NCBI GenBank assembly: GCA_036961355.1
Contig: JBALVL010000012.1
Coordinates: forward strand, 5,954-69,953
Reading direction: 5' to 3'
Length of the DNA stretch: 64,000 bases
DNA from: Motiliproteus sp.
GTDB taxonomy: Bacteria; Pseudomonadota; Gammaproteobacteria; Pseudomonadales; Balneatricaceae
Shown here in pieces: positions 6,584-58,681 of the stretch. The notes below the pieces were generated by a model that was not told the DNA's origin, did no database searches, and worked only from the letters and a program-made list of their open reading frames with translations. Every line of letters starts with the position of its first letter. Within the stretch, counting starts at the first letter, position 1. The position numbers and the translations under genes are program-made.

Positions 6584-7350
6584 ACCTCCTCCTCCTGCTG
6601 CTGTTTGATTATGCTGCCGGGGCGCTGATACCGGCTGTTATCTTGTGTCGATGACGGGCCAGGCGTTGCAACCGTTTTGGCTGTCGATTTAGGCTGGATT
6701 TTGGGTTTTAGTCTTGAGCGGCGATGTCGCTTGATCCACTGTTTTACCAGTTGCTGCAATTGAACAAGCTCGTCACCGCAGATATCGCTGCCCGGTTGAT
6801 AAAGGCTGGTGGCCAACCGCTGGCCGAGCGGTTCATTGAAGGCTTCTATGCGGCTGCTAGCGTAGAGAAAATCGAGCCAAGACTGACCGCTTAACGCCGC
6901 CAGCGCTTGTGCCTGGTCGTGACTATTTTCGTAGTGAGTCGGGGCAAAACCCTGCAAGGCGGTGCGTTTGAGTATCTGGTTGAGTTGCTGGGTGGCTGGA
7001 AGGTTCGAAGGTTGCTTCGATGCTTTGGTTAGAGAGGTTTCAGCGGCCTGGTCGGCGGCCAGCTGGCCGAGCTCGCGCAGCGCCAGGCGACGGTAACGGT
7101 TTCGCAAACGGTGACGCCTTAGCGTGATCCCCAGCCATACCATGGCCCCGCTGATGATCAACCCCAGTAGCCACCAGCCCGGAGCCGGTGGCCAAATTCC
7201 GATGGGGTCGGGCAGTTGTATATCGCGCAGTTGATCCAGTGACGCGGCTCCGGGGGCATCTCCTGCCACAGGGCTAACGGGGGGCGTCGTACCCGCCGAT
7301 ATCGTTGATGGCGGGGTCGTGTTAACGGCAGTTTCAACGGCGCTTTTCAT
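6577..7350 (-). CDS. DUF4381-like membrane protein
   Basis: Motif LPDPIGIWPPAPGWWLLGLII followed by RRHRLRNRYRR, in the position between DUF58 and VWA genes. Start at MKSAVETAV (ATG 7348-7350) with a GGAGA RBS, immediately after the DUF58 stop. Confidence 0.65.
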   Translation of the reverse strand: MKSAVETAVNTTPPSTISAGTTPPVSPVAGDAPGAASLDQLRDIQLPDPIGIWPPAPGWWLLGLIISGAMVWLGITLRRHRLRNRYRRLALRELGQLAADQAAETSLTKASKQPSNLPATQQLNQILKRTALQGFAPTHYENSHDQAQALAALSGQSWLDFLYASSRIEAFNEPLGQRLATSLYQPGSDICGDELVQLQQLVKQWIKRHRRSRLKPKIQPKSTAKTVATPGPSSTQDNSRYQRPGSIIKQQQEEEVC

Positions 7351-7351
7351 G

Positions 7352-8281
7352 TTATCTCCGCTTGCCGTACAGGCGGGCAAGCAGCGGTTGCAGCGGCTGC
7401 CCGGTACTCAGGCTGACCAGCGACATATTGAATTGGCCACAATGGATCTTCAACTGTTCTAACCGTTGCTCGATCAGGTCTTGCTGGTTATCTGAACCGG
7501 TCAGAAAGTGCCGTTGCTGACCATCGGTGACCCAGAGTTGTTGGGTGCGGGGGAGCTGCTGTTCCAGCGGGTCGTGCAGCATAAACAAGGTTAGGTCGGC
7601 ATGTCGGCTGAGCTGGTACAGCAGTTTGACCGAGCGCGAATCGAGATCATGAAAATCGCTGGCGATATACAGACCGCTGCCGGGGCGGCAGATCGGCAGC
7701 AGTTTCTCCAGCATTTTGTACAGCGGTTGGGATGGTTGCGTCGGGCAGGGACTGTCGAGTTCGGCAGCGAACTGATGGAGTAATTGAACCCAGTTCAACG
7801 CCGCGTGTTTGCTGCGTTTGGGACGAATCTCCCGGTGTTGTTGATCACCAAAAACCAGCCCGCCCACCCGGTCACGGTTGGCCAGCGCGATCCACCCCAA
7901 TGCGCTCATCAGACTGCTGCATAACACCGATTTGAAACAGTGCTGCGAGCCAAAAAACATCGACGAGCGCAGGTCGGCTGCCAGTAACACCGGGCGTTCC
8001 TGCTCTTCGTGATAGACCTTGGTATGCGGCTGCTGGCTGCGGGCAGTGACCCGCCAGTCGATCGAGCGGATATCATCACCGGCCTGGTAGGGTCTCACCT
8101 CATCAAAGTCGATACCCCGGCCGCGTCGGCGGGTCTGCCACTCGCCACTTAAAGCGGCGCTGCGGCGTGAACGCCGGACCAGTTTTAGATCGGCACAGCG
8201 GCGATGCCAGCCGATTAGCTGGTCGAGTTCGGGGTAGGCGCCTTGCAGTGGCAATTCGGTAGCGTCTGGTTGAGCGATCAT
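7352..8281 (-). CDS. DUF58-domain protein (MoxR-associated, VWA-like)
   Basis: 309 aa with RRRGRGIDFDEVRPYQAGDDIRSIDWRVTAR, the signature region of DUF58 proteins that follow MoxR ATPases. Confidence 0.8.
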   Translation of the reverse strand: MIAQPDATELPLQGAYPELDQLIGWHRRCADLKLVRRSRRSAALSGEWQTRRRGRGIDFDEVRPYQAGDDIRSIDWRVTARSQQPHTKVYHEEQERPVLLAADLRSSMFFGSQHCFKSVLCSSLMSALGWIALANRDRVGGLVFGDQQHREIRPKRSKHAALNWVQLLHQFAAELDSPCPTQPSQPLYKMLEKLLPICRPGSGLYIASDFHDLDSRSVKLLYQLSRHADLTLFMLHDPLEQQLPRTQQLWVTDGQQRHFLTGSDNQQDLIEQRLEQLKIHCGQFNMSLVSLSTGQPLQPLLARLYGKRR

Positions 8282-8322
8282 TGGGGCACGGTTCTATAGA
8301 TTCTAAACATGATGTCGGGCGC

Positions 8323-9285
8323 TCAGGCTACCGGCACCTGTTGCAGCAGTGTCTCGATCACCGTCTCGACATCGAGGCCATTCGCTTCTGCTTCAAAACT
8401 GAGCAGTAAACGGTGGCGTAACACATCGGCGCAGATCTGCCGGACATCATCGGGCGTGACGTAGTCCCGACCTTGCAACCAGGCATGAGCTTTGGCGCAG
8501 CGGCAAAGTGCGATAGTGGCACGCGGGCTGGCGCCGTATTCGATCCAGTTATCGAGTTCAGCAGAATAAAGACCGGGATCGCGACTGGCGATCACCAACT
8601 CCACGATATATTGCTCCACCGGCTCGGATAAGTAGACCTCCAGCACTTGCTGACGTGCTTGCATCAGTGCCTGTTGCGGCAGTTTTTGTGGCGGTTGTGC
8701 CGCCGTGGTATTAGCCGCTTCGTCGAGTGCCAAGCGCAGGATGGCACGCTCAGCGTCCCGGTCGGGATAACCAACATTTACTTGCATCAAAAAGCGATCA
8801 AGCTGCGCTTCGGGCAGCGGGTAGGTGCCCTCCTGTTCGATCGGGTTCTGAGTCGCCATCACCAAAAACAGCTCGGGCAGCGGGTAGCTGTTGCTGCCGA
8901 TGCTGACCTGGCCTTCGGCCATCGCTTCAAGCAGCGCCGACTGAACCTTGGCCGGTGCGCGGTTGATCTCATCGGCCAACACCAAATTATGGAAAATGGG
9001 GCCGGGCTGAAAGGTAAATGTGCCGTCTTCGGGACGGTAGATATCGCTGCCGGTGACGTCGGCGGGTAACAGGTCGGGGGTGAATTGAATGCGGTGGAAA
9101 TCCCCCTCGATGCCCTGCGATAATGCTTTGATGGCGCGGGTTTTAGCCAGCCCCGGCGCGCCTTCTACCAGCAGGTGGCCGTCGGCCAGCAGTGCGATCA
9201 GTAGGCGTTCGACCAAAACTTTCTGGCCGATGATTTGGGATTCAAGCCACTGTTGCAGGCTCTGTAGTTGAGTCAGTGTGCTCAT
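8323..9285 (-). CDS. moxR: MoxR-family AAA+ ATPase
   Basis: Walker A GAPGLAKT, Walker B LVLADEINRA, length 320 aa, first gene of the DUF58/VWA operon. Confidence 0.9.
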   Translation of the reverse strand: MSTLTQLQSLQQWLESQIIGQKVLVERLLIALLADGHLLVEGAPGLAKTRAIKALSQGIEGDFHRIQFTPDLLPADVTGSDIYRPEDGTFTFQPGPIFHNLVLADEINRAPAKVQSALLEAMAEGQVSIGSNSYPLPELFLVMATQNPIEQEGTYPLPEAQLDRFLMQVNVGYPDRDAERAILRLALDEAANTTAAQPPQKLPQQALMQARQQVLEVYLSEPVEQYIVELVIASRDPGLYSAELDNWIEYGASPRATIALCRCAKAHAWLQGRDYVTPDDVRQICADVLRHRLLLSFEAEANGLDVETVIETLLQQVPVA

Positions 9286-9980
9286 CGCTTTGTTACAAGC
9301 TCCATGGCTATCGTAGGTTTCAGGCTGGTTGTTTAGTTCGGATTGTTGTTTTGATTCAGGTTCTTGCGGTTGTGGTTATGACCGCTCTTTTGGCAATTGG
9401 TTGCGATGCCGTATGGTGAAGCAGTGTGCTGAAAAAACAAGCACATCGAGGCAGTATTTTTCAATCGGCTAGATCGTAGAGCCCGCTTAGAGATGATCCT
9501 TGGTTAAACGGGTATTTGTTGGCTGATCGACTGCTAGACTGGTTTGCAATATAGGGTTGGCATGAGAGCAGTCGCGTAAATGCGGTATCGACCGATATAG
9601 TTAAGGTTTGGCTCGGTAAGTGCGGCCTGTGCAGAGGTGCTTAAAGTAGCAGATCTACCAACGGATATTACAACGTACTGATCTGACGGATGCGGTGGAT
9701 GGAACTCATCTTGCCGCGCTGAGTGGTGAAGCGGACAGAAGGGTATCGTTCTGGTGGAGTCTACGCCGATGATTCGACATAGCTGTCGAACCCTAACCAA
9801 GAACTGATCCGTAAGCTGGAAACAGCGACCCAGATGCGAGAGCAACAGCATCGATGAAACCGGTGCTTCTGCGAATGTATAAACAATCGGATTGATGACG
9901 GTTGTCAGCAAGTTCACCCAGATGACTTCGTTTCTAATAACTCACAGGCTATTTTACCTGTTCATCTGAATGCTAAGTAG

Positions 9981-11444
9981 GTGGCTTCTTTGCGTAAGAT
10001 CTTTGCGGTTCCCGGCACTGTTATTCTCACATTGGGTACCAGTGTGATAATTGTTCTTCTATTGCTGCTGTTATGGAATGAGCGCACTAAAGATCTCAAT
10101 CTTGCTAGGGCGAATGCGACGTATGTTGCTGAGTTGATGGGGGCAAATGTGCGCAGAACTGTTGATGAATTAGCTGACCAACTCTACGGAACCCGAAGCG
10201 CAGCACTTCTACTTGCACCCGAAGCAACTCCCAAGCAACAGCAACAGACTATCAACGCCCTGGCGACCGACTTGTTGGAGCGCAAACCTTTCATCCGAAC
10301 GTTCTTTATCGTATCGCCTCAAGGCGACATCACCCAATGGAATCGTGATCAACCCCGGCCGTCGGTGGCGGATCGTGAATATGTCCAGCACCACGTCGAT
10401 CACCCAGAGAGCGGTCTGTATATTTCTCAGCCGATCCGCTCTAAGTTGGATGATCAGTGGATTATCCTAGCTAGCCTGCCTTTACGCTCCCCCCAAGGAG
10501 AGTTAACAGGCGTCGTCGCTATCAGCATCGAGCCTGAGGTTCTTGCCCCAAGGTATCTGCAATCTATCCCTTCTACGGGCTTTGATCTGGGTATTTTGAA
10601 GGCGGATAGCCAGGTAATCTGGTCAAACACCCATGAGACGGGTGAACGTTTCATCTCGTCCGCAGTTTCTGACTCCCCTTGGCTGGAACTGAAAGGTTCC
10701 GGCAACCTAGAAACCCTGTCCATTGGCAATCAAGGACTACGGCTTGTGGGGTACCAACAGTTTGAACAATCATCCATCTATATAGTTGCCTCGTTGTCGG
10801 TTGATAGCGTCCTCAAAAATTGGAGAATGCAGCGGAACATTGCGGGGTTCTCGGTTTTCTTTCTTGTGGTGATGAGTGTTGGTGTCGGTCGGCGTTTAGT
10901 TGCGGGTCACAACCGGTTACTGGAACAACACCAGAAACTGGAGTTATTGGCAACTCGAGATGCACTGACGGGGTTGCCCAATCGACGGTTTTTATGGGAT
11001 CAGGCCAAGCGATTGATCGCCTCGGCTCAGCGCCATCGATTTTCGCTGGCTGTAATCATGCTCGATATCGATCATTTTAAACGGGTTAATGACAGTTATG
11101 GCCACGATGTCGGTGATCGGGTCCTTATATCATTAGCGAATCTGATTGGAGGGGTCGCCCGCGAAACCGACCTGACCTGTCGGCTCGGTGGTGAAGAGTT
11201 TGCCATCGTTTTCTCGCACACCAGTGATCAACAAGCGACCGTGATTGCTGAACGGATTCGGGAGCAGGTGAAGTTGTTATCTTTTGACACGGAGCAGGAC
11301 TCTTTTGGAATAACCGTCAGTGTTGGTGTTTCAACGCTTGTTGATAATCTGGATATCGCACTGAAAAGTGCCGATGAGGCGCTTTATGTTGCCAAAAACA
11401 GCGGCCGTGATCGGGTGATTAACGCCGATCAACGACAGAGTTAA
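9981..11444 (+). CDS. Diguanylate cyclase with an N-terminal periplasmic (Cache-like) sensor
   Basis: Two TM segments flank a ~270-aa periplasmic region. C-terminal GGDEF domain with RLGGEEFAIVF active site and an RxxD-like I-site context. Confidence 0.85.
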   Translation: MASLRKIFAVPGTVILTLGTSVIIVLLLLLLWNERTKDLNLARANATYVAELMGANVRRTVDELADQLYGTRSAALLLAPEATPKQQQQTINALATDLLERKPFIRTFFIVSPQGDITQWNRDQPRPSVADREYVQHHVDHPESGLYISQPIRSKLDDQWIILASLPLRSPQGELTGVVAISIEPEVLAPRYLQSIPSTGFDLGILKADSQVIWSNTHETGERFISSAVSDSPWLELKGSGNLETLSIGNQGLRLVGYQQFEQSSIYIVASLSVDSVLKNWRMQRNIAGFSVFFLVVMSVGVGRRLVAGHNRLLEQHQKLELLATRDALTGLPNRRFLWDQAKRLIASAQRHRFSLAVIMLDIDHFKRVNDSYGHDVGDRVLISLANLIGGVARETDLTCRLGGEEFAIVFSHTSDQQATVIAERIREQVKLLSFDTEQDSFGITVSVGVSTLVDNLDIALKSADEALYVAKNSGRDRVINADQRQS

Positions 11445-11742
11445 GGCTGTATTTTAAGATGTTTGGCTAATTTGAAGTTTTTGTACGGAATCTGCAGCGA
11501 GTAGATTTCGAATACATTCTACTTTTTCATCCTACTGTTCTTCGAATGGATTACCCATAAAGCGGTTCTGTGATTAGAAAAACAACACTCTCTCTTCTAA
11601 GATAATAGAGTCTCAGAAGGTTGCTGAGTCGGGTAGTTGGTCGATTAGAAACCGAAAGCAGACTCTTCATCTCTGATAGTACTGCGACCGACGTTAACGC
11701 AACCGTTGTCGCGCGATCGACTCATACCCTTTATCACTCGTA

Positions 11743-12384
11743 GTGGATATCGAGCGCTCTGCAACTCCTGAGGGAGAGTGGCCCGTGGACAGAGCCGTAT
11801 CGGCTTTCTGTACCGAATCCAAACCAGCGCGCAGCCTGTCTTGGCTACGATTGCTGCCTATGCTGCTGCTCTGTTGCCTCGTTAGTTTTTTCTTCCGTTC
11901 AGCCTTGGCGGATGATGCGCCATCCGTTTCGCGGACCGACTACTCAACGTTGGATCTACAGGTTCGGACTCTGAAAAAGGAGGTTCTGGCGATCAATCGT
12001 GAACTGCGGTTGCTGGAGGAGGAGATGCTATACCCCTCGGCGCAGCAGTTGGTGATGTTGTTATCGGTGCTACCGCAACCGGATTTTAAACTCGCTGAAA
12101 TAAGCATCATGCTCGATGGCGTGGTGCTTGCGCTGCACCGCTACAGCGATGCCGAGAACGCGGCTTTGGCCAAGGGCGGAACGCATCGGCCCTACATGGG
12201 CAGGCTCAAACAGGGAGCGCATCAGTTAACGGTTTCTATATCCGGAAGGACTGCCGAGGGCGACACATTCCAACGGGCGATCCGGCAGCCAGTTGATAAG
12301 CAGCAAACCGCACGTTATATAGAGCTGAGGGTAGAACCTGCCCTGTTCTCAGATGTGCCACTGCTAAATATCTATCAGTGGTAA
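11743..12384 (+). CDS. Hypothetical secreted coiled-coil protein, first gene of the TPR/ExbBD/TonB-like operon
   Basis: Signal-like LLPMLLLCCLVSFFFRSALA, heptad-like LKKEVLAINRELRLLEEEMLYP. Stop is 8 nt before the next gene. GTG start is uncertain. Confidence 0.5.
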   Translation: MDIERSATPEGEWPVDRAVSAFCTESKPARSLSWLRLLPMLLLCCLVSFFFRSALADDAPSVSRTDYSTLDLQVRTLKKEVLAINRELRLLEEEMLYPSAQQLVMLLSVLPQPDFKLAEISIMLDGVVLALHRYSDAENAALAKGGTHRPYMGRLKQGAHQLTVSISGRTAEGDTFQRAIRQPVDKQQTARYIELRVEPALFSDVPLLNIYQW

Positions 12385-12391
12385 CGCGGTC

Positions 12392-14476
12392 ATGCTGACG
12401 CTGCTACGTAAATCGGGATGGCGATGCCATCTGTTGGTCGCCATGCTTGGCGGTTCTGTATTTGGCGGCTCTATGCTGAATGGCTCTATGCCGGGTTCAT
12501 CTATGCAGGCAAGGGCAGATGAGGCGCCCGGCCCAACGCGACTGCAACAGTTGCTCTCAGGTGAAGCGCTGTACCGATCGCAACTCAACGACTATCTCTC
12601 GGCGATCCCCCAGCTGCAGTTGGCGCACGAGGAGGGCCTGCTAACGGACTCCTCTGCTGAAAGTGAAGTTCTGCTGACCCGACTCAAACTGGGTTACGGG
12701 TTGCGAGGGGAGGCCGATAGTGAATTTCGAGCCCTGCTCGACGAGCGTATCGACCCACAGCTCAGAAACCGTGCCTGGTATGAACTGGCTCGCAGCTTTT
12801 ACCAGCAGCGCAATCCGTCGTCGGCCAAGGCGGTGCTCGATAACATTCAAGGATCGGTGCCTGACGATATTCGCGGTGACCATCAATTACTCCAGTCACA
12901 TGTGCTGATCGCGTTAGGGCAACATCAACAGGCGGCTCAGGCCCTCGAGAGCTGGAGAGGGGCGAAGTCATTGCGTGGTTATGGCTACTACAACCGAGGT
13001 ATCGCGCTGATGCTGGCAGGGCGGGATACCGATGCGTTGGTATCGCTCAAGCGCGTGGTCGATCTGCCCGCGGAATCGGAAGAGTTACTGGCCTTAAGGG
13101 ATAAAGCCAGTGTCACCATCGGATATACGCTGGCACGTCAGGGTGACTTGCCGCAAGCTCGGAAGTATCTGCAACGTGTCCGCCTGCGTGGTCCCTCGTC
13201 AAACAAGGCGCTATTGGCGAGCGGTTGGATTGCGCAGCAGCAGGGCCAAACCAAACAGGCGTTAGCACCTTGGATGGAGCTACGTAAAAGGGCGTTGTCA
13301 GATCCTGCGGTGCAGCAGTCGTTGCTGGCGGTGCCATCGTTATACCAACAGTCGGCTCCGGCTTCGGCGGTGAAGGACTATGAAGCCGCCGTTACCGCTT
13401 TCTCCCGTGAGTTGGATTCAATTGATCAAGCGACAGCATCGCTGCAGCAGGGGCATAACCTCGGTGAACTGTTGGCTGCCGAACCCGTAAAGACGACAGT
13501 AACGGCGGTGTCCGGAACATCCGACTCTGGACTCCCTAAGCCCGGTTTATCTGCCCTTGGAGCTTCTGCATCTAGATTGTCTGAACCTGGATTGTCTGAA
13601 CCTGGATTGTCTGAACCAACATCCTCCCAGCGGATGGGGTCGTTATTGGCCAGTCGTATTTTTCAGCAGACGGCGCGCGGGCGCAGTGACTTGCGTGCGA
13701 TGATCGATAATCTGGACGAAGGGCTCAGAAGTGTCGATGCGCTGGCTCGGTTAACCCGACCCGGCTCTGATCGAATCGCTGATGAGGTGGTGACGGAGGA
13801 GTATCGGACCCGCTCGACACCAGGTACGGCAGCTATCCCCGGTGCGAGCGTCGGCAGATCACAAGCCGTGCCGGTTAATCCGCTGGTTGGTAGCGGCCTG
13901 TCAATCAGGAACCGTTTTTTGGGTTTACCGACTGGCTATCCGGGGGACTTTCCCGATTCGGAAGTTATCGCTTTGCCGGAGTCATCGCAGGAACTTCCCG
14001 ATTCTTACGCCTTCAATCTCCCCGGAGGTGGCTCAATCATCATTCCTAATCGGGGTGATTGGCATCGCAATCCGACAGGCAAATGGCGGGCTCACAACAA
14101 CAGCGTGCCTGAACTATCAGCGCTAGCGGTTGCCCCGGCCAACCCCCAACCCCTCAGCCAACCCCAGCCGTTGAGTCCTTCACTGGCCGAGCTGGTTACG
14201 GCGTTGAGTGAAACCCGCATACGAATACGGCGTATCGTCAGTCGTGCCAAGCTTGGGTCTCGTCCGGGCGGCCAGCTGGATGAACATATCGCATCGTTAC
14301 GGCAGCGGATTGTGCTGCTGCGGGACCGTACTGTCGTTGCTGTTGAACACTACGAACAGCACGCACGCAACTTGGCGCTGGAGGAACTCCAGCGAAGTCA
14401 TGATCAACTGCAACATAACCTCAGACAGGCCCGGCTTGAATTGGCCAAAAGTTATGACTCAGCCAATGCGCATTAA
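12392..14476 (+). CDS. Secreted TPR-repeat protein (GltE/AglT-like by context)
   Basis: 694 aa with an N-terminal hydrophobic leader, TPR-like helical repeats in the first ~330 aa, a (LSEPG)x3 repeat and a C-terminal coiled coil. Confidence 0.65.
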   Translation: MLTLLRKSGWRCHLLVAMLGGSVFGGSMLNGSMPGSSMQARADEAPGPTRLQQLLSGEALYRSQLNDYLSAIPQLQLAHEEGLLTDSSAESEVLLTRLKLGYGLRGEADSEFRALLDERIDPQLRNRAWYELARSFYQQRNPSSAKAVLDNIQGSVPDDIRGDHQLLQSHVLIALGQHQQAAQALESWRGAKSLRGYGYYNRGIALMLAGRDTDALVSLKRVVDLPAESEELLALRDKASVTIGYTLARQGDLPQARKYLQRVRLRGPSSNKALLASGWIAQQQGQTKQALAPWMELRKRALSDPAVQQSLLAVPSLYQQSAPASAVKDYEAAVTAFSRELDSIDQATASLQQGHNLGELLAAEPVKTTVTAVSGTSDSGLPKPGLSALGASASRLSEPGLSEPGLSEPTSSQRMGSLLASRIFQQTARGRSDLRAMIDNLDEGLRSVDALARLTRPGSDRIADEVVTEEYRTRSTPGTAAIPGASVGRSQAVPVNPLVGSGLSIRNRFLGLPTGYPGDFPDSEVIALPESSQELPDSYAFNLPGGGSIIIPNRGDWHRNPTGKWRAHNNSVPELSALAVAPANPQPLSQPQPLSPSLAELVTALSETRIRIRRIVSRAKLGSRPGGQLDEHIASLRQRIVLLRDRTVVAVEHYEQHARNLALEELQRSHDQLQHNLRQARLELAKSYDSANAH

Positions 14477-17400
14477 CTTCGATCCGAATCCCTCGCGCTT
14501 ACGTTTTAAGGAACGTCTGAGGGATCGTTTGAGGCTAGGGACTGTTGCTGTGCTTATCATCGGAATTTTTGTTATGGCCGGCTGTACAGGGGCTCCGGCG
14601 CGTCATACAGATGGAGGTTCGACGGCATCACAGACGCTTGCCGATCTGCCATTAAGCGCCACTCAGGCGGTTTATACAGCGGCTGATTCAGAGGGTATTG
14701 ATGATACCAGCCACAAAGCGATTGCGGGCTATCGTGACTTTTTAGCACGCTACCCTGACTCAGCGGACAGGCCGGAGATACTGCGTCGAATGGCTGATCT
14801 GATGGTCGATGTCGGTGAAGCGGCAGCTATTGATACTGCCATAGATCCCATCGTTTTTAGTCAAGGCGCGCCAAAAGGAGCAGGGTTAATAGGCACTGCA
14901 ACCGAGACAACGAACCATCGTTTTGACGAACCGATAGCGATCTACCAAGGTTTACTGAGTAGTGATCCACAAAACCCTGCCAACGACGAAATTCTTTATC
15001 AACTTGCCAGGGCGCAGCAGAACAATGGCCAAGCGTCGCAGGCACTGATAACGCTCGAACTTTTAACCACCCAATACCCAGCTACTGAAAACCGGAACGA
15101 CGGCAATAGGATCTATGCGGATACTCAGTTTCGACGGGCGGAGATTTTTTTTGCAGAGCGGGACTTTGTACAGGCTGAGAAAGGTTACGCCGACGTGGTC
15201 GCGTTGGGTGACTCGGTGCAACTCTATCAGCAGGCTCAGTATAAGTTGGGGTGGAGTTTGTTTAAGCAGCAGCGTTACCAAAGTGCGCTGCTGCCATTTA
15301 CCCAGATACTGGACCGTCAGTTGATTCGGGTGATTGATACGCAACAAGCGGCTGATCCGCGAGCAGATCCCCGTGTCGCGCTTGCCGGGCTTTCCCGGAC
15401 TGAGCAGGAACAAGTTGCCGACATTTTTCGTGGGCTGAGTCTGAGCTTTTCCTATCTGGCCGGACCCGATTCAATTGTTGAGTTCTTCGATCAGCGGGGC
15501 GAGCGTAATTACCAGGTGCTGCTCTATGCCGATCTTGCGGCGCTCTACCAACGCAATGAATTGCTGGCCGATGCAGCCCGTACCTGGTTGGCGTTGGTGG
15601 CACGCGATCCGGATGGGCCGATGGCACCGACGGCTTATATCAAAGCGATCGATCTTTACCAGCAAGCGGGATCGTCGCAACCGTTGTGGCAGGCGCGCGC
15701 TGACTTTGCCCGCCACTACCGTTGGGATCAAGACTACTGGGTCAGCCACTCTGCCAACCCGCCAGCGGAGCTGGTGGAGGCGCTGCAGCTTGAGTTGGTG
15801 CAGTTGTCCGGTTATCACCATCGTCGTGCCTTGGCTAGCGACGAGGTGGAGGTGTATCAGCAGGCGGAGCGTTGGTACCGTCAATATCTAGCTCAGTTTG
15901 GAGAGGCCGAAGAGGGGCCAGAGATCAACTATCAACTGGCCGAATTGCTGTATCAACGCGGTGATTACCAAGGCGCTGTAAATGAGTATGAGCGGGTTGC
16001 ATATGACCGAGGCGATCTCGATTTGGCTGCTAAGGCCGGGCGGTCGGCTTTGCAGGCGTACCAGCGTTTAGCCGAGATAGAAGGAAACAGAGAAGGCGAG
16101 ACGAACCGAAGTGCTGCTGAAGCCACGCACGCTAACGTAGGGCTTAATGTAGAAATGAGTGAACGCCTGAACAGGAGCCGGATCCGATTTGTTATGTCCT
16201 TTCCTCAACATCAAGACGCCGCTGCGGTATGGACCCAGACCGGTTATGAATTGTTGCAACAGGGGGAGGCCGATGCAGTAGTGGCGCTGAGCGAAAACCT
16301 TAAGCAGCAGCGCAACGCTTTACAGGACAAGGATTTTCAGGGAGAGGATTTACAGGATAAGGGTTTACAGGATAACGATTTTCAAGACAAGGCGTTGCCG
16401 CCAAAGCTGCAGCAAGCCGACCGGGTTTTGTGGGCGCAGGCTCAATACGAGCGGGGTGAATTTGGGCTAGCCGAGCAAGGGTATCGTCAGGCTTTGACCA
16501 ACGCGAAAATCGATCGCTCGCAGTATCTGGTGTTGCAGCAGGGGATTGCCCTTTCACTTTACCGCCAGGCCCAAACAGCCCTTCAACGTGGAGATCAACG
16601 GCTAGCGGCAACGTTGTTCCTGAAGGTAGCTGCTGTGCCACATTTGACCAGTACGAATAAAGAGGAGACCAGTGCGAAGCAAGGGGAGGTCAGCTCGAAT
16701 CAAGAGGAGTTCGACTCGATGATGCCGATCGATGCGCAACTGCAAGCGGCGACGCTGTTGCTCGGACTGGAAGAGTGGAGTGACGCGGTTCGGGTGCTGG
16801 AACGATTACAACTGGCGCACCCGCCACCAAGTCTGGACCCGCAGCGGCAGTTGTCAGTCACCAAAAAGCTGGCCTTTGCTTATCATCGTAGCGCTCGCTA
16901 CGCCGAGGCGGCCACGGAGTATCAGCGGCTGGGACTAGCTAAGCAGGGGGGAGGGGAACAGGGACAGCCGGACCTGCGTCCTCAGGCCTTGCTACGATCG
17001 GCTGAGTTGTTCTTAAATGCGGGTCAGGTGGCCGGAGCCATAACTGTCCTTGAGGCTTATGTGGAACGTTTTCCGAAGCCGGTGGGTGAAGCAACCCAGG
17101 CGATGTTGCAGTTGGCCAACCTGTCTTACGATCGGGGTGATTTGACTGCCCAGCGGCGCTGGTTAAACCGGATCGTAAAGGCAGACCGGGTTGATGGCGA
17201 TGCGACCAGCACAGTGGTTGCTGCCAACGCGACATTACAGCTGGCTGACCCGCCGCGGCTTAATTTTGAGCAGATTGAGCTGGTTGAACCACTGCAGCAG
17301 AGTCTGACTAAAAAACTGTCGGCGATGGAGCAGGCGTTGGCAGCGTTAGCGTCAGCATCCACCTACCGTGTTGCTTCGGTCAGTAACGCTGTGCGTTACC

Positions 17401-18224
17401 GCGAGGCGGCGATCTATCATCAGTTTTATCGTTCGCTGCTCGACTCTGAACGGCCCGCAGGGCTTAACCGCGAAGAGACCGATCATTACAACCGGCTGCT
17501 GGCGTCACAGGCGGAGCCTTTCAAGCAGAAATCGATACTGTTGTATCAGGCCCAAATGCGTCGTACACCGGCTGAGCCGCTTGATAACTGGACACAACTG
17601 AGTTTGGCAGCCTTGACTTCGCTGAACCCGCAGCAGTATGCCAAACCCGAGCGTAGCGACCCCTGGTGGCGGTCCGAGCAGGTTGAACCTTCCCTTTGTG
17701 TTGAGGTTAGCCGCTGGCATGGTTGTGCGGCAGGTGGTCGACCCGAGCTGCGAGCCCAGTCGCTACCCAAACCTCTGCCCAAGCCGTTCAGAGAGATGTC
17801 GGAGCAAATTGCGCAGCAGCAGTTTGCTGAAGCTGAGGCGTTGTTAGCGAAAAGTGCACAGCAGGGACATTACCCTGATCAATTGCTCGAATACATCGGT
17901 GATGCCGCGCAGCGTGGCGACTTTGACGGCGTCAATGAGTTGTTGCAGTGGTTGCCTGAGTTGGATGCTGGCAAATCCATCGCCTACACTCAGCTTGGTA
18001 TTCAACTTCGCCAAGCGGGGTATCTGTCTCGGGCTAGGATGGCTTATCAGCGCGCTTTGGAGGTCAAGCCGGATTACCCCTTGGCACACCTGAATCTTGG
18101 CATCCTGTGTGAGCTTTATCTGCAGGTGACCGAGTGTGCGATGAATCATTACGGTGCCTTTCAACGCCTCTCGGTGGTGGCCGATCCGCAGGTAAATCGA
18201 TGGCTTGAGGGGTTACAACGATGA
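14454..18224 (+). CDS. Very large TPR-repeat lipoprotein (GltD/AgmU-like by context)
   Basis: ATG 14454 gives MTQPMRINF...LGTVAVLIIGIFVMAGC, a lipobox. About 1250 aa of TPR-like repeats (for example YQLARAQQNNGQASQALITLELL, AYTQLGIQLRQAGYLSRARMAYQRALEVKPDYPLAHLNLGI). The listed start at 14208 overlaps the previous gene and is rejected. Confidence 0.75.
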   Translation: MTQPMRINFDPNPSRLRFKERLRDRLRLGTVAVLIIGIFVMAGCTGAPARHTDGGSTASQTLADLPLSATQAVYTAADSEGIDDTSHKAIAGYRDFLARYPDSADRPEILRRMADLMVDVGEAAAIDTAIDPIVFSQGAPKGAGLIGTATETTNHRFDEPIAIYQGLLSSDPQNPANDEILYQLARAQQNNGQASQALITLELLTTQYPATENRNDGNRIYADTQFRRAEIFFAERDFVQAEKGYADVVALGDSVQLYQQAQYKLGWSLFKQQRYQSALLPFTQILDRQLIRVIDTQQAADPRADPRVALAGLSRTEQEQVADIFRGLSLSFSYLAGPDSIVEFFDQRGERNYQVLLYADLAALYQRNELLADAARTWLALVARDPDGPMAPTAYIKAIDLYQQAGSSQPLWQARADFARHYRWDQDYWVSHSANPPAELVEALQLELVQLSGYHHRRALASDEVEVYQQAERWYRQYLAQFGEAEEGPEINYQLAELLYQRGDYQGAVNEYERVAYDRGDLDLAAKAGRSALQAYQRLAEIEGNREGETNRSAAEATHANVGLNVEMSERLNRSRIRFVMSFPQHQDAAAVWTQTGYELLQQGEADAVVALSENLKQQRNALQDKDFQGEDLQDKGLQDNDFQDKALPPKLQQADRVLWAQAQYERGEFGLAEQGYRQALTNAKIDRSQYLVLQQGIALSLYRQAQTALQRGDQRLAATLFLKVAAVPHLTSTNKEETSAKQGEVSSNQEEFDSMMPIDAQLQAATLLLGLEEWSDAVRVLERLQLAHPPPSLDPQRQLSVTKKLAFAYHRSARYAEAATEYQRLGLAKQGGGEQGQPDLRPQALLRSAELFLNAGQVAGAITVLEAYVERFPKPVGEATQAMLQLANLSYDRGDLTAQRRWLNRIVKADRVDGDATSTVVAANATLQLADPPRLNFEQIELVEPLQQSLTKKLSAMEQALAALASASTYRVASVSNAVRYREAAIYHQFYRSLLDSERPAGLNREETDHYNRLLASQAEPFKQKSILLYQAQMRRTPAEPLDNWTQLSLAALTSLNPQQYAKPERSDPWWRSEQVEPSLCVEVSRWHGCAAGGRPELRAQSLPKPLPKPFREMSEQIAQQQFAEAEALLAKSAQQGHYPDQLLEYIGDAAQRGDFDGVNELLQWLPELDAGKSIAYTQLGIQLRQAGYLSRARMAYQRALEVKPDYPLAHLNLGILCELYLQVTECAMNHYGAFQRLSVVADPQVNRWLEGLQR

Positions 18225-18235
18225 GGCGGAATTGT

Positions 18236-18338
18236 CTATGAGGGATAGGCTATGAGGTATGCAGCTATGAGGTATGCAGTCATGAGGGATAGGCCATGCG
18301 GTATGCAGCTATGAGGTCTTTATCCATGCGCTATGCAG
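18236..18338 (+). repeat. Seven degenerate 14-15-bp tandem units (CyATGmGGTATGCAG), each carrying an ATG
   Basis: Read directly: ctatgagggatagg / ctatgaggtatgcag / ctatgaggtatgcag / tcatgagggatagg / ccatgcggtatgcag / ctatgaggtctttat / ccatgcgctatgcag. Lies between the giant TPR gene's stop (18224) and the small secreted ORF. Confidence 0.85.
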
Positions 18339-18667
18339 CGTCCAGCTTGCTGTTTGTGGTGCTGTTTTTAGCGTTGTTGTTGAATTGCGTCCCTTTGGCG
18401 CAGGGGCAGGAAGATCAGGCGTCAGCCGGTCGTCAGCAGGCGCAAGCAAACAGCAACTCGCTGGAGCAGCAACCAATAGCGATTCGGGGCAACAAGGCCT
18501 TGCCCAAGACCCTGTTTATCGCGCCCTGGAAACAGTTGGGGTCACCGCTGGGTAGTGATCCTTTCGCGGCGCCTGCTGCTGAGCAGCCGGTACCGTTGGA
18601 GCGGGACCTGTTTCTCAAAGAGTTGGAGGTTTATCACGATGGCGTTCCCGCCGAAGACTCCTGGTAG
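18296..18667 (+). CDS. Small secreted protein (GltF-like position); start ambiguous among repeated ATGs
   Basis: Signal peptide MRYAASSLLFVVLFLALLLNCVPLAQG. In-frame candidate starts at 18296, 18311 and 18326. Confidence 0.5.
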   Translation: MRYAAMRSLSMRYAASSLLFVVLFLALLLNCVPLAQGQEDQASAGRQQAQANSNSLEQQPIAIRGNKALPKTLFIAPWKQLGSPLGSDPFAAPAAEQPVPLERDLFLKELEVYHDGVPAEDSW

Positions 18668-18789
18668 TTGTCGGCATCGTAGTTATCAGTTTCGGATGGA
18701 ATCAACACTTATTTGCCGGGCTCGTTGCTGTTGTTGGAACCTATATTGGGACCTAACTAACGCTGTGCCGCCAATCAGAGGGAGATTGT

Positions 18790-19449
18790 ATGGACAAACT
18801 CTACGCAGTATTGGGCTTCTTTCAGTCCGGCGGCCTGTTTATGTACCCGATTGCATTCATCCTAGCGCTGGGGGTCGCTATTGCGATCGAGCGTTATATC
18901 TATCTATCGGTGGCCGAGAACCGTAACCGTAAAGTTTGGAAACAGGTGGTGCCGCTGGTGGAGCAGGGGCATGTTGAGCGAGCCTGGGAGTTGGTGCTGG
19001 GTTCGAACTCGGTGATGAGCCAGGTATTAGGTTATGGCTTGCAGTGCGCACAGTCACCCAGCAGCAAGGATGCAGTACAGCGGGCAATGGAGGAGGGGGC
19101 GCTAGAATTTCTTCCTCGACTGGAGAAGCGCACGCATTACCTAGCGACCTTTGCCAATGTGGCTACGCTGTTGGGACTTTTGGGAACCATCATGGGTTTG
19201 ACTGAGGCGTTCTCGACGCTGTCCGATGTGGGCTCGGGTGACCGGGCGCAGGTGTTGTCGGCCAGTATCTCGCTGGCGATGAATACGACGGCTTTTGGTT
19301 TGATGGTTGCGATTCCGATGTTGCTGGTCCACGCCTATATGCAAACCAAGGTGACGCAGGTGTTAGACGGCTTGCAGATGGCGTCGATCAAACTGCCTAA
19401 AATGCTGGACGTTGAGCTGAAGAGCTTGGATATCAGCCATGATAGCTAG
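18790..19449 (+). CDS. exbB: MotA/TolQ/ExbB proton-channel family protein
   Basis: 219 aa, three TM segments, conserved C-terminal region LATFANVATLLGLLGTIMGL...ALSASISLAMNTTAFGLMVAIPMLL. Confidence 0.85.
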   Translation: MDKLYAVLGFFQSGGLFMYPIAFILALGVAIAIERYIYLSVAENRNRKVWKQVVPLVEQGHVERAWELVLGSNSVMSQVLGYGLQCAQSPSSKDAVQRAMEEGALEFLPRLEKRTHYLATFANVATLLGLLGTIMGLTEAFSTLSDVGSGDRAQVLSASISLAMNTTAFGLMVAIPMLLVHAYMQTKVTQVLDGLQMASIKLPKMLDVELKSLDISHDS

Positions 19450-19975
19450 ATATCACAGTCGTCTGAGGCGTGATGCTGAGTCGGTAGATGTGACCGCATT
19501 TCTTAGCCTGATGGTGATTCTGATCCCTTTCTTGCTGATCTCGACGGTACTGTCGCAACTGGCGATTATCGATCTGCAGGTTGCACAGGGTGAGTCTCAA
19601 GCCGCCGATGTCAGCGATCCACTAGGGTTGCAGCTGGTGGTTCGCTCGACGGTGATTGAACTTGATCACCAACAACGACAACAGCCGTTGCTGATTGATC
19701 GAGCGCAGGGGGAGAAGGCGTGGCAGTTGTTGGCCCAGCAGTTGCTCGAGCTTAAGCAGCGCTACCCGCAAAGTACTGCGGCGACAGTTTTGCTGGAATC
19801 ACAAGTGAGCTACGAGGTGTTGATTCGGGTTGTCGACTTGGTTCGCCTTCAATCGAGCACTCTAGGGTCTGAGCCAGTCGCGGCGTCTGCGTCCGCCCAG
19901 CAACAGCCGCTGTTTCCGGATCTGACGCTGGGTGAAGTCTCAACCCGCAGCGCAGCAGGGAAGGGTTCACCGTGA
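19439..19975 (+). CDS. exbD: ExbD/TolR-family biopolymer transport protein
   Basis: N-terminal VDVTAFLSLMVILIPFLLI TM helix typical of ExbD/TolR. Overlaps the exbB stop by 11 nt. Confidence 0.8.
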   Translation: MIARYHSRLRRDAESVDVTAFLSLMVILIPFLLISTVLSQLAIIDLQVAQGESQAADVSDPLGLQLVVRSTVIELDHQQRQQPLLIDRAQGEKAWQLLAQQLLELKQRYPQSTAATVLLESQVSYEVLIRVVDLVRLQSSTLGSEPVAASASAQQQPLFPDLTLGEVSTRSAAGKGSP

Positions 19976-20556
19976 ACCTGACCCTAGCTGAACAGGTACG
20001 CCTGCGACGGCACAGGCGCAGCGGTCTAACAACGCCGCTGAATCTGGTCGCGCTGATGGATGTGTTTACCATCCTGGTGTTTTTCTTTTTAGCGCACTCC
20101 TCCAGTACCGCCCTTAGCGCGGCCGATCAGCAGATCCGTTTACCCGAATCGGTGGCACAACAGCCGCCTCAACCTGCGCTGGTGGTGACGATCACGACGC
20201 GGCAGCTGTTATTGGAGGGTCAGATGGTTGATACGCTGGCGGCGGTGCAAGCATCAGCTGACAGCGCGATACCGGCGCTGGTGCAAGCGTTGGCGGCTGA
20301 GCTTGGGGTTGCAAGGGGAGAGCGTTCTGGGTCATCAAGAGGAGAGAGTAGCGAGTCAACAACAGCAGCGAACACCCAGGCAAGTACCGCGGGTGAAATC
20401 CTGCCCCGTCGCGAAGTCACAATCATGGCTGACTTGTCGATACCGTTTCGGGTGATAAAAAAAGTGATGTTGAGCTGCCAGCAAGCTGGCTACCAACAGA
20501 TTTCGCTGTCGGTGGTACAAAAATCGGTAGCTCAACGATCGGGAGGAACATTGTGA
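19972..20556 (+). CDS. exbD: ExbD/TolR-family biopolymer transport protein (second copy)
   Basis: TPLNLVALMDVFTILVFFFL TM helix. GTG start overlaps the preceding stop as GTGA (19972-19975). Confidence 0.8.
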   Translation: MNLTLAEQVRLRRHRRSGLTTPLNLVALMDVFTILVFFFLAHSSSTALSAADQQIRLPESVAQQPPQPALVVTITTRQLLLEGQMVDTLAAVQASADSAIPALVQALAAELGVARGERSGSSRGESSESTTAANTQASTAGEILPRREVTIMADLSIPFRVIKKVMLSCQQAGYQQISLSVVQKSVAQRSGGTL

Positions 20557-20663
20557 GCGACAGAAGAGGTGGCTTGGTAGATCGGATGTATTGCCAGTAT
20601 TGGCCGTATCGATGTACTAAATCGTTAATTAAGCAGCATGAGCCACAGCAGGGATAAGCGCTG

Positions 20664-21839
20664 ATGGTATCACTGCAAGGGTCCATTACTGTTGGTGCGG
20701 GGGGTGAAAAAGAAGACCGCCTGTTCCATCAATTGTTGGTGTTTACGCTGGCTCTGTTGTTGCTGGCGGGTGTGATCGTACCATTGATAAAACTGCCGTT
20801 ACCGCTGGAGACCGCGCTTGATATGCCGCGACGTGTCGTTCAAATTATCGCGGGTGTGAGAAGCCCGTTTATGCGTCAACAAACGCCGCTTGGTAACCCC
20901 ACCACAGCTGCTATATCCCCGCCAAAAAATACAGCAGAGCCTGCCGTCGTAACCGCACCAACACCAATACCGAAAGTAGCATCGAAACCAATATCTAAAT
21001 TAGTAACGCAGCCCGTCCAGGTGCCAGTAAAGGTCCCCGCAAAATCTACAGCTAAAACGAAAACGAATACAATTGCGCGTACGGTTGAGAAGCCCCAACC
21101 TCCTGCCGTGCCCGCTTCTAATCTTCCAACTTCTGATCCTCAAAACAGAGCGGATGTTCGTCCAAAACCGACAACGGTAAAGCCTGCGCGCAAAAAGGTG
21201 GAACAGACCGGTTTGCTGGCATTCAACGAGACGCTGGCCAAGTTGAGTCAGATACCGATCGCCGAATCGGAAGTCAGCCGATCTGAAACCAACCTCAGTT
21301 CTGCCGTTTTTGATGATAAAACCGTAACATCTTCTGATGCTCTGACCGCCGGGGTGACGTCCGATAGTGGCCTCACCGATTCGGCGAATTTGCTCACGCT
21401 GGCTGCGTTACAGCAGCGGTTGCTGACCCCCGAATCGTCATCTATGGCGGCTGGTGGCGAAGCGGGAACCGGAACCGGACCACAACGTGTGGCGGGTGCA
21501 CCGATAGTGGCGGGACTTTCAGCGGCAAAATACAACAAGGTCAGTAACCGGCGTAGCGAGGAGCAGATTCAGGGGGTGCTCAATCGGCATAAACATACCA
21601 TCTACAAACTCTACAACCGCGAACTGATAGCGGCGCCGGGCTTACAGGGCAAGGTGGTGGTTAGTGTCACCATCACCCCTTCCGGGCGAGTCAGCCGTAG
21701 TCTGATCATCGACAGCGAACTGGCCTCTTCCTCTTTGGAGAGCGGGTTGCTGCGGTTGATCGCAGCAATCGATTTTGGTGCCATCGCCAAGTCACCCACG
21801 GTTACCACTCGGGTGCCTATCGATTTCTTTCCGCAGTAA
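20664..21839 (+). CDS. TonB-like / AgmX-PglI-C-terminal-domain energy-transducer protein
   Basis: One N-terminal TM helix (LLVFTLALLLLAGVIVPLI), a long P/A/K/T-rich linker (PTPIPKVASKPISKLVTQPVQVPVKVPAKS...), and a C-terminal module IYKLYNRELIAAPGLQGKVVVSVTITPSGRVSRSLII that resembles TonB-C/AgmX folds. Confidence 0.7.
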   Translation: MVSLQGSITVGAGGEKEDRLFHQLLVFTLALLLLAGVIVPLIKLPLPLETALDMPRRVVQIIAGVRSPFMRQQTPLGNPTTAAISPPKNTAEPAVVTAPTPIPKVASKPISKLVTQPVQVPVKVPAKSTAKTKTNTIARTVEKPQPPAVPASNLPTSDPQNRADVRPKPTTVKPARKKVEQTGLLAFNETLAKLSQIPIAESEVSRSETNLSSAVFDDKTVTSSDALTAGVTSDSGLTDSANLLTLAALQQRLLTPESSSMAAGGEAGTGTGPQRVAGAPIVAGLSAAKYNKVSNRRSEEQIQGVLNRHKHTIYKLYNRELIAAPGLQGKVVVSVTITPSGRVSRSLIIDSELASSSLESGLLRLIAAIDFGAIAKSPTVTTRVPIDFFPQ

Positions 21840-58400: not shown

Positions 58401-58496
58401 ATTGGACGGCAGACGCCCGAGAGTTGAACAGAAAAGATTATGGATTGAGGTTGTCGATGTTAAGCCTGGAAAGAGATGGCTCCTCGAGCAGGACTC
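58401..58496. repeat. Direct repeat copy B (96 bp); overlaps the 3'-terminal 20 nt of tRNA-Asn
   Basis: Identical to 47051-47146 at a constant offset of 11,350 bp. Confidence 0.9.
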
Positions 58497-58552
58497 GAAC
58501 CTGCGACCAATAGATTAACAGTCTACTGCTCTACCAACTGAGCTATCGAGGA
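58477..58552 (-). tRNA. tRNA-Asn (anticodon GUU)
   Basis: Reverse complement is UCCUCGAUAGCUCAGUUGGUAGAGCAGUAGACUGUUAAUCUAUUGGUCGCAGGUUCGAGUCCUGCUCGAGGAGCCA. It folds as a cloverleaf by hand (7-bp acceptor, GCUC/GAGC D stem, GUAGA/UCUAU anticodon stem, CU-GUU-AA loop, GCAGG/CCUGC T stem, encoded CCA). Confidence 0.95.
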
Positions 58553-58605
58553 ATCATGACGGTTTGACAGAACTGATCTTGGTTAAGATAACCAAGCTGG
58601 AGCGG

Positions 58606-58681
58606 TGGCTCCTCGAGCAGGACTCGAACCTGCGACCAATAGATTAACAGTCTACTGCTCTACCAACTGAGCTATCGAGGA
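58606..58681 (-). tRNA. tRNA-Asn (anticodon GUU), second identical copy
   Basis: Same 76-nt sequence as 58477-58552, separated by a 53-bp spacer containing the hairpin CTTGGTTaagaTAACCAAG. Confidence 0.95.

Follow-up and report, generated by a model that had tools for sequence, protein, structure and literature searches.

What kind of machine is encoded by an operon that combines one TolQ/ExbB-type gene, two TolR/ExbD-type genes and a TonB-like gene with large tetratricopeptide repeat (TPR) proteins, and that has no TonB-dependent receptor gene beside it? This question was raised by eight genes (g1 to g8) located at positions 11743–21839 of a 64,000-nucleotide stretch of DNA from Motiliproteus sp. 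(contig JBALVL010000012.1 of assembly GCA_036961355.1), the whole of which is referred to here as the window. Our analysis indicates that the locus is probably a complete gammaproteobacterial Agl-Glt "core complex" operon, the ancestral module behind the Agl-Glt and Agl-Nfs machines of Myxococcus xanthus, and that its output may be mechanical and similar in logic to that of Tol-Pal. The eight open reading frames (ORFs) were found on the forward strand, co-directional and tightly packed, as the original prediction, made from the DNA letters and a list of ORFs, had described them:

11743–12384, forward strand: g1, ORF of 213 amino acids (aa)
12392–14476, forward strand: g2, ORF of 694 aa
14454–18224, forward strand: g3, ORF of 1256 aa, with the reading frame open from 14208
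18296–18667, forward strand: g4, ORF of 123 aa
18790–19449, forward strand: g5, ORF of 219 aa
19439–19975, forward strand: g6, ORF of 178 aa
19972–20556, forward strand: g7, ORF of 194 aa
20664–21839, forward strand: g8, ORF of 391 aa

Overlaps of start and stop codons at g2/g3, g5/g6 and g6/g7 support the reading of these genes as a single unit. The expected overlaps of 23 nucleotides (nt) between g2 and g3 (14454..14476, given the ATG at 14454 as the start of g3) and of 11 nt between g5 and g6 (19439..19449) were confirmed, as was the GTGA shared by g6 and g7 at 19972..19975; the spacer between the stop of g1 at 12384 and the start of g2 at 12392 is 7 nt and not 8 nt as first stated. The Pfam scan identified TPR in g2 and g3, MotA_ExbB in g5, and ExbD in both g6 and g7, with TonB_C below threshold in g8. 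A hydropathy scan (19-residue Kyte-Doolittle mean ≥ 1.6) revealed N-terminal signal-type hydrophobic segments in g1, g3 and g4, three transmembrane (TM) segments in g5, and one TM segment each in g6, g7 and g8.

Luciano et al. (2011; PLoS Genet 7:e1002268, PMC3169522) divided 14 M. xanthus gliding genes into two groups, one restricted to Myxococcales and Bdellovibrionales (gltA, gltB, gltF, gltH, gltI, gltJ and gltK) and the other consisting of gltC, gltD, gltE, gltG, aglR, aglQ and aglS. The term "core complex" was given to the second group where it is found in a single locus together with one additional gene that has no myxobacterial homologue. Core complexes were reported in Gammaproteobacteria, one betaproteobacterium, Geobacter and Fibrobacter with no function assigned, and the core was considered not sufficient for motility; what the original prediction had said of this study for beta- and gammaproteobacteria is correct. 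Table S3 of that study, which covers Cellvibrio, Hahella, Marinobacter, Saccharophagus, Shewanella and Teredinibacter (for example, loci CJA_3312-3319, Maqu_1595-1602, Sde_2954-2961 and Sfri_1223-1230), gives a layout of GltC (550–692 aa), GltD (933–1016 aa), GltE (162–263 aa), one skipped locus tag, AglR (205–272 aa), MXAN_6861 (AglQ, 169–188 aa), MXAN_6860 (AglS, 162–185 aa) and GltG (321–334 aa). Later papers still call the function of the core complex unknown, and our literature search found no functional study of it in Gammaproteobacteria.

Compared with Table S3 by gene order and size, the window locus has the same inventory in the same order and with the same sizes, in a single operon and with no receptor gene, which upholds its proposed identity as a counterpart of the Agl-Glt core. 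A GltC-like gene is followed by a large GltD-like gene and then by a GltE-like TPR region, which is fused to the GltD-like gene here; an additional gene (g4) is located inside the cluster; a TolQ/ExbB-like gene is followed by two different TolR/ExbD-like genes; a GltG homologue with a Pro-rich spacer and an AgmX-type domain is encoded last; and all of the genes are found in one conserved locus. The GltG-like protein is about 320–390 aa long and has no FHA domains in the window as in the published sets. The window differs from these sets in the fusion of GltE to GltD, in a Ser that replaces the TM Asp of the AglQ-position subunit, in the greater length of g8 (391 versus 321–334 aa), which is due to a longer spacer, and in the presence of g1, a conserved upstream gene that is not in the 2011 table.

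The original prediction had proposed a comparison of synteny across Gammaproteobacteria. Such a comparison was carried out by scanning one genome per GTDB species, of which at least 561 had a relative of g3, and the genes of the best 80 loci were surveyed by phmmer. The order g1-g2-g3-(g4)-g5-g6-g7-g8 was kept in essentially all of the 80 loci with long enough contigs, indicating that the arrangement is more than chance, and it was also found in the loci L081, L083 and L084. The 80 loci come mostly from metagenome-assembled genomes (MAGs) and include those of Motiliproteus, Steroidobacteraceae, Woeseiaceae, Halioglobus, Oceanococcus, Thiodiazotropha, Acidiferrobacterales and a MAG of Alcaligenaceae. 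The cultured Motiliproteus coralliicola C34 (locus L001) carries the same operon. The module consists of nine genes where GltE is encoded separately and of eight genes in the window.

The sole specific link to Myxococcus that was demonstrated by a profile hidden Markov model (HMM) is the C-terminal domain of g8. This protein has a cytoplasmic N-terminus of about 23 aa, one TM segment, a spacer and a TonB-like C-terminal domain, and thus is bitopic, as expected. The C-terminal domain (residues 298–388, nt 21555–21827, the last 91 residues) scored 60.6 bits with the AgmX/PglI model NF033768 (cutoff 40), while the TonB models PF03544 (TonB_C, 18.4 bits versus 24.6) and TIGR01352 (25.1 bits versus 27.1) were missed, and by these scores the domain matches AgmX/PglI better than TonB. 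The g8 homologues in M. coralliicola and in L083 have the same domain pattern; both passed TIGR01352, with 30.0 and 36.8 bits, respectively. The spacer (residues 70–185) consists of 18% Pro, 14% Thr, 11% Ala, 11% Lys and 11% Val. No FHA domain match was found in g8, no conserved His of the SHLS type was found in its TM segment, and no sequence relatives of its C-terminal domain were found in the PDB.

The presence of one TolQ/ExbB-type and two TolR/ExbD-type genes was likewise borne out. The adjacent and overlapping genes g5, g6 and g7 are of the aglR/aglQ/aglS type and follow the order AglR, MXAN_6861-like and MXAN_6860-like of Table S3. g5 encodes an AglR-like subunit of the TolQ/ExbB/MotA family (PF01618, 99.1 bits) and is presumed to form a pentameric channel. 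Its best NCBIfam model was TolQ (60.7 bits, equivalog cutoff 221), ahead of the ExbB model TIGR02797 (39.5 bits, cutoff 206), and its best PDB relatives were TolQ chains; judged from these comparisons, g5 is closer to TolQ than to ExbB. g6 and g7 encode ExbD/TolR paralogues at the AglQ and AglS positions (PF02472, 38.5 and 53.4 bits, respectively), for which the equivalog scores were below cutoff (TIGR02803, 20.3 versus 153 bits; TolR, 28.9 versus 127 bits).

The two TolR-like subunits differ in the residue expected to bind protons. In g7 the TM Asp is retained (Asp30), and an Asp was present in 60 of 60 aligned AglS-position sequences. In g6 the canonical TM Asp is replaced by Ser23, and an Asp is found at position 17, six residues upstream. 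When g6 was aligned with 61 homologues from related loci (62 sequences in total), the AglQ-position residue was Asp in 35, Asn in 23, Ser in 3 and a gap in 1. Ser occurred only in the window, M. coralliicola and L008 (Halioglobus), which are exactly the sequences with Asp17, and the 23 sequences with Asn have no TM acid. D28 of M. xanthus AglQ is essential, and the D28N substitution abolishes function. An AlphaFold model published in 2025 (PMC11761067) predicted an AglR5-AglQ-AglS heteromer; given this stoichiometry and the loss of the canonical Asp from g6, each stator in this lineage would have at most one canonical protonatable Asp.

The largest protein of the operon, g3, appears to combine two core subunits. 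It consists of a GltD-like body (nt 14454 to about 17669), a disordered linker (about 17670–17768) and a GltE-like TPR module (about 17781–18221). An AlphaFold2 model of the protein, with a pLDDT (predicted local distance difference test) score of 84.5, showed an all-alpha solenoid, a disordered linker at about residues 1073–1105 and a discrete C-terminal TPR module. At least 565 homologues of g3 were found; most are about 930–950 aa long and align with about 80% of the query. In 69 of the 80 loci the GltD-like ORF ends near query residue 1068, and in the other 11 it is fused to the GltE module. In L081, a GltD-like protein of 939 aa is followed by a separate 278-aa TPR protein, which has the lipobox-like sequence LAAC in its N-terminal region and whose C-terminal 80 residues are 43% identical to the last 80 aa of g3. 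GltD and GltE are also encoded by separate genes in the cultured M. coralliicola. The same fusion with the same junction sequence is present in an independent assembly (P0002; 66% identical), which makes a sequencing frameshift unlikely, and the GltD-GltE fusion in g3 is real and lineage-specific. In at least two loci, L083 (9001–12228) and L008 (about 9854–12972), the GltD-like gene leads straight to a g4-like gene and the GltE gene or module is apparently missing; GltE is thus separate, fused or absent depending on the lineage. The fusion linker of g3 contains SLCVEVSRWHGCAAGG, and P0002 has NCIEVSRWHGCTVND at the equivalent place. Both sequences may be degenerate remains of a signal peptide and lipobox that GltE carried when it was still separate.

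The signal segment of g3 ends in the lipobox VMAGC, in agreement with the original prediction of a TPR lipoprotein, and the lipobox is also present in the closest relatives of the window protein. The ATG codons at 14454 and 14466 are equally possible starts. The identical protein has been deposited under "MAG: Motiliproteus sp." as a TPR protein of 1216 aa; this public version begins at the Met of MAGC and would strip the protein of its signal peptide, so that one of the two upstream ATG codons is the more plausible start; no exact database record was found for the product that starts at 14454. The repeats of g3 scored 82.7 bits with the YbgF/CpoB-type TPR model (cutoff 90.1), and its homologue in L081 scored 141 bits, with matches in 6–7 stretches. 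In Foldseek, the g3 model matched generic TPR scaffolds of eukaryotes; among bacterial structures the one notable match, at a low TM-score, was 9hmf_K, the flagellar periplasmic scaffold of Campylobacter.

g2 consists of an N-terminal TPR region (about residues 50–340), low-complexity inserts and a conserved C-terminal helical region, and it was conserved in 76 of the 80 loci. The original prediction had taken this protein for a secreted counterpart of GltE. The TPR repeats were confirmed, and the hydropathy scan detected no N-terminal hydrophobic segment above the threshold; the protein presumably is periplasmic. Its position and its size of 694 aa fit the MXAN_2541 (GltC) homologues of Table S3 (550–692 aa), which places g2 at the GltC position and not at the GltE position, the latter being taken by the C-terminal module of g3.

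The assignment of the small protein g4 to GltF also had to be revised, as GltF belongs to the group of proteins found only in Myxococcales and Bdellovibrio. In every gammaproteobacterial cluster of Table S3, one locus tag is skipped between GltE and AglR, and by its position g4 corresponds to this unlisted additional gene and not to a demonstrable GltF. It encodes a secreted-type protein of 123 aa, or of about 112 aa if translated from Met11. Despite its small size, a homologue was found at the same position in 49 of the 80 loci, and g4 is 55% identical to a 92-aa gene in L083. The family comprises 58 representative clusters, almost all of 86–186 aa, with the conserved core I-x-G-N-x-x-LPK-x-LYI(V/A)PWK ... 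P(V/L)(D/E)RD(V/L)F-x-RE and with invariant G65, P70, P77 and W78. No Pfam or NCBIfam HMM match was found for g4, and its profile had no sequence relative in the PDB. The protein probably has a disordered N-terminus, a conserved hydrophobic segment that would form a strand and a conserved segment that would form a helix. This layout resembles that of GltF, which in the 2025 AlphaFold model (PMC11761067) has a strand that extends the beta-sheet of the C-terminal domain of GltG and a C-terminal helix that binds GltC; the resemblance is a functional analogy and not a demonstrated homology.

g1 is a conserved operon member that is new to the published core inventory, being missing from the gene table of 2011 (Table S3). 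In 74 of the 80 loci its homologue immediately precedes the GltC-like gene, and the six exceptions are cut at or near a contig end. g1 is a secreted-type protein of 213 aa in which a signal peptide and one long helix precede a C-terminal beta-sandwich; its public annotation has 199 aa, which fits a start at GTG 11785. The AlphaFold2 model (pLDDT 82.8) showed a signal helix, a 32-residue helix (residues 65–96) and strands between residues 102 and 212 that form an eight-stranded beta-sandwich. No Pfam or NCBIfam match was found for g1. Its profile search returned at least 8000 database clusters, and those listed are "hypothetical" or nameless and have no Pfam domain. Searches of the PDB gave only generic beta-sandwich matches with Foldseek, none of them at E ≤ 0.001, and only chance coiled-coil and immunoglobulin matches with the g1 profile.

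One further gene was frequently found at the start of related operons. A gene of about 170 aa encoding an AhpC/TSA-redoxin (thioredoxin-fold) protein was located 0–30 nt upstream of the g1 homologue in 38 of the 80 loci (for example, L002, L003, L026 and L069), and also in L081 (5895–6404) and L084 (9362–9853). Its hosts are Steroidobacteraceae, Woeseiaceae, an Alcaligenaceae MAG and unclassified Gammaproteobacteria. It is the only widespread extra, is lacking in both the window and M. coralliicola, and may count as a tenth, accessory gene.

How such a machine would operate can be suggested by analogy with TolQRA and with the model of the Myxococcus machine. An inner-membrane stator of the TolQ/TolR type, in which an AglR-like pentamer encloses one AglQ-like and one AglS-like subunit, would turn proton flow into movement. 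The TM helix of the GltG-like g8 would ride this stator, an arrangement that recalls the AglR-GltG interaction observed by bacterial two-hybrid assay (PMC3169522), and its Pro/Lys-rich spacer of about 110 residues would cross the peptidoglycan. The spacer and the TonB-like domain of g8 may then grip the GltD-like TPR solenoid, which would be lipid-anchored to the outer membrane and have GltE in the same chain; in the 2025 model, the linker of GltG wraps GltD (PMC11761067). The GltC-like protein, g4 and the beta-sandwich protein g1 would complete the periplasmic assembly; g4 is a candidate to bind the C-terminal domain of g8 through a beta-strand, as GltF does with that of GltG in the Myxococcus model. 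The output would be mechanical work on an outer-membrane-proximal scaffold, which most likely would move or organize a component of the envelope or the cell surface.

Several results weigh against the identification of the locus as an Agl-Glt core operon. The curated equivalog models built for the Myxococcus proteins were missed by g8 (gliding_GltG, 30.7 bits versus a cutoff of 650), by g2 (gliding_GltC, 9.9 versus 450 bits, not significant) and with the GltE model (17 versus 225 bits), and no GltD model was among the listed NCBIfam matches. The TPR proteins scored higher with the generic YbgF/CpoB, BamD, PilW and Tgl models than with GltC or GltE, and when their homology to Myxococcus GltC, GltD and GltE was examined with NCBIfam, generic TPR similarity only was found. 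The profile comparison favored the C-terminal domain of g8 and not the TPR proteins, and since the similarity of the latter to the GltC and GltE models is weak and generic, what ties them to the core is synteny together with the published phylogenomics. The orthology of g2 and g3 to GltC, GltD and GltE is accordingly putative. The lipobox of the GltD-like protein is missing from the Steroidobacteraceae/Woeseiaceae clade, suggesting that outer-membrane anchoring of this protein is not universal; g6 has no canonical proton-accepting Asp; and the protein contacts proposed above are all carried over from an AlphaFold model of a distant homologue.

Four other explanations were considered for the operon. 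It might be an ordinary additional TonB-ExbB-ExbD energizer, similar to TonB2 or TonB3, that serves receptors encoded elsewhere with the TPR proteins as TtpD-like accessories. The TonB fold of the g8 C-terminal domain on its Pro-rich spacer, the membership of g5, g6 and g7 in the ExbB/ExbD Pfam families, the success of the M. coralliicola and L083 homologues with TIGR01352, which was only just missed by g8, and a 2020 preprint that loosely terms AglRQS-GltG a putative TonB-dependent transporter system are consistent with this explanation. However, no TonB-dependent receptor gene was found within about 10 kb of the operon, and among the flanking-ORF clusters of the 80 loci, which were not domain-scanned, no recurrent family resembled receptor, barrel or polysaccharide genes. 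In contrast to TonB systems including the Vibrio TonB2/TtpC system, the window locus has two ExbD paralogues and no TtpC, its ExbB equivalog scores are far under the cutoff with TolQ scoring higher, its transducer has no conserved TM His and has a C-terminal domain closer to AgmX/PglI, and it is invariably linked to four periplasmic proteins of about 2300 aa in total. An additional TonB energizer is thus very unlikely in our estimation, and a Tol-Pal-like action is favored over nutrient import because no receptor gene adjoins the operon and because the periplasmic partners are always linked. A paralogue of Tol-Pal itself, which would stabilize the outer membrane or aid constriction with the TPR proteins as enlarged regulators of peptidoglycan synthesis of the CpoB/YbgF kind, agrees with several features: TolQ and TolR are the top-scoring characterized relatives of g5 and g7, the repeats of g3 match best with the YbgF/CpoB model, an outer-membrane lipoprotein partner is present, a 5:2-type stator driven by the proton-motive force (PMF) and a bitopic, periplasm-spanning transducer are shared with TolQRA-TolB-Pal-CpoB, and the 2025 M. 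xanthus model likens AglR5QS-GltG to TolQ5R2-TolA. This explanation is unlikely, with no homologue of TolA domain III, TolB or Pal in the operon, no tolA, tolB or pal gene within about 10 kb, TolQ and TolR scores far under the equivalog cutoffs, and a heteromeric stator plug and giant TPR scaffolds that set the locus apart from Tol-Pal. The thresholds of the ExbB, ExbD, TonB, TolQ and TolR models were all missed by the window proteins and the partner genes are not in the locus, in line with the original view that the locus belongs neither to Tol-Pal nor to the classical TonB uptake loci.

The remaining two explanations concern the machines known from Myxococcus. The locus has in common with them a TolQR-type motor in which the two TolR-like subunits differ, a TonB-like GltG that ends in an AgmX/PglI domain, and periplasmic TPR proteins of large size; the fusion in g3 mirrors the contact predicted between GltE and the C-terminus of GltD. 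A basal device for secretion or surface-polymer transport, which would carry a glycan or a protein to the cell surface or along it, as Agl-Nfs does with spore-coat polymer, has been put forward as a speculative hypothesis for the core complex (Wartel 2013, Islam 2020), and Agl-Nfs, a derivative of the core, transports strands of the Exo polymer. We regard this device as highly improbable here, given that the window shows no gene for polysaccharide synthesis or export, for an outer-membrane barrel or for an adhesin next to the operon and that the flanking families described above include none of this kind. The probability that the operon is a gliding-motility motor is close to nil in spite of the homology of its core to Agl-Glt. 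The window operon is without the GltA/GltB barrels, GltK, GltH, CglB, GltI, GltJ and AglZ; gltF likewise is not in the operon, and neither the genes found only in Myxococcales and Bdellovibrio nor the CglB adhesin gene was found within about 10 kb of it. The Myxococcus genes are distributed over three clusters, whereas a single operon is present in the window, and Myxococcus GltG has cytoplasmic FHA domains that dock on the platform (PMC11761067), whereas g8 has only about 23 cytoplasmic residues and none of the FHA domains that link GltG to the platform. With platform, outer-membrane barrel and adhesin genes absent from the locus, and with a core that is not sufficient for motility (PMC3169522), the operon cannot drive gliding.

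Within the preferred identification as an Agl-Glt core operon, it is conceivable, though on balance somewhat doubtful, that the module forms a third, autonomous class of trans-envelope machine, powered by the PMF and standing alongside Tol-Pal and TonB. Such a class would include the two unannotated families of g1 (beta-sandwich) and g4 (small strand/helix protein) and would have its own output, for example, the moving or remodelling of outer-membrane lipoproteins or surface polymers, and a heteromeric stator with a single Asp, that of AglS, the Asp of the partner subunit having been lost or relocated.

The surroundings of the operon in the window were also examined. The following features are located upstream of g1:

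1957–9285, reverse strand: complete Bat operon (MoxR-DUF58-DUF4381-BatA-BatB-BatD), divergent from the GGDEF gene
8323–9285, reverse strand: MoxR AAA+ protein of the Bat operon
7352–8281, reverse strand: DUF58 protein of the Bat operon
6577–7380, reverse strand: DUF4381 protein of the Bat operon
5528–6583, reverse strand: BatA-like VWA protein of the Bat operon
3675–5546, reverse strand: BatB-like protein of the Bat operon with VWA and TPR
1957–3681, reverse strand: BatD of the Bat operon
9981–11444, forward strand: dCache-GGDEF diguanylate cyclase, directly upstream of g1 and separating the Bat operon from it

The Bat operon is therefore one GGDEF gene away from g1, as had been pointed out, and this proximity was found not to be a conserved linkage. 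Genes for MoxR, DUF58, DUF4381 and VWA proteins were found in none of the 80 loci, which suggests that the proximity of the Bat operon is incidental, and the GGDEF gene was found in one. Downstream of g8 are genes for a glutathione S-transferase (GST) and a pirin on the reverse strand, followed by a LysR gene on the forward strand; the GST and pirin genes were likewise present in none of the 80 loci. A co-occurrence of the operon with the Bat/MoxR, GGDEF and GST genes, seen in 0, 1 and 0 of the 80 loci, respectively, was thereby ruled out.

The GGDEF gene and g1 are separated by an AT-rich non-coding stretch of 298 nt (11445–11742). Scans for promoters and terminators yielded nothing beyond the shuffled expectation, with no consensus promoter or terminator in this stretch, and the Rfam scan of the window, which identified only two tRNAs, detected no Rfam element in it. 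These are two tandem tRNA-Asn(GTT) genes on the reverse strand (58477–58681) with 54 nt between them. Near the end of the window, a gene for JetA of the Wadjet anti-plasmid system was identified at 60892–62385 (PF18982, 294.8 bits), and it is overlapped downstream by an ORF at 62379–63110, which may be jetB.

The type of system described here has been in the literature since 2011, and the window locus adds no new category to it. The new details are that g1 is missing from the published inventory, that GltD-GltE fusions support a predicted subunit contact, that the proton-binding Asp is retained in just one of the two TolR-like subunits, and that the Bat/MoxR and GGDEF neighbors are incidental. 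If the module is indeed a third class of PMF-driven machine, the GltD-GltE fusions would independently back the periplasmic architecture that has been predicted for the focal-adhesion motor of Myxococcus. The core is widespread, many of the at least 561 genomes with a GltD-like relative belonging to abundant Gammaproteobacteria of marine sediment and soil, such as Woeseiaceae and Steroidobacteraceae, and it is from this complex that the focal-adhesion gliding motor and the spore-coat machine of Myxococcus evolved.

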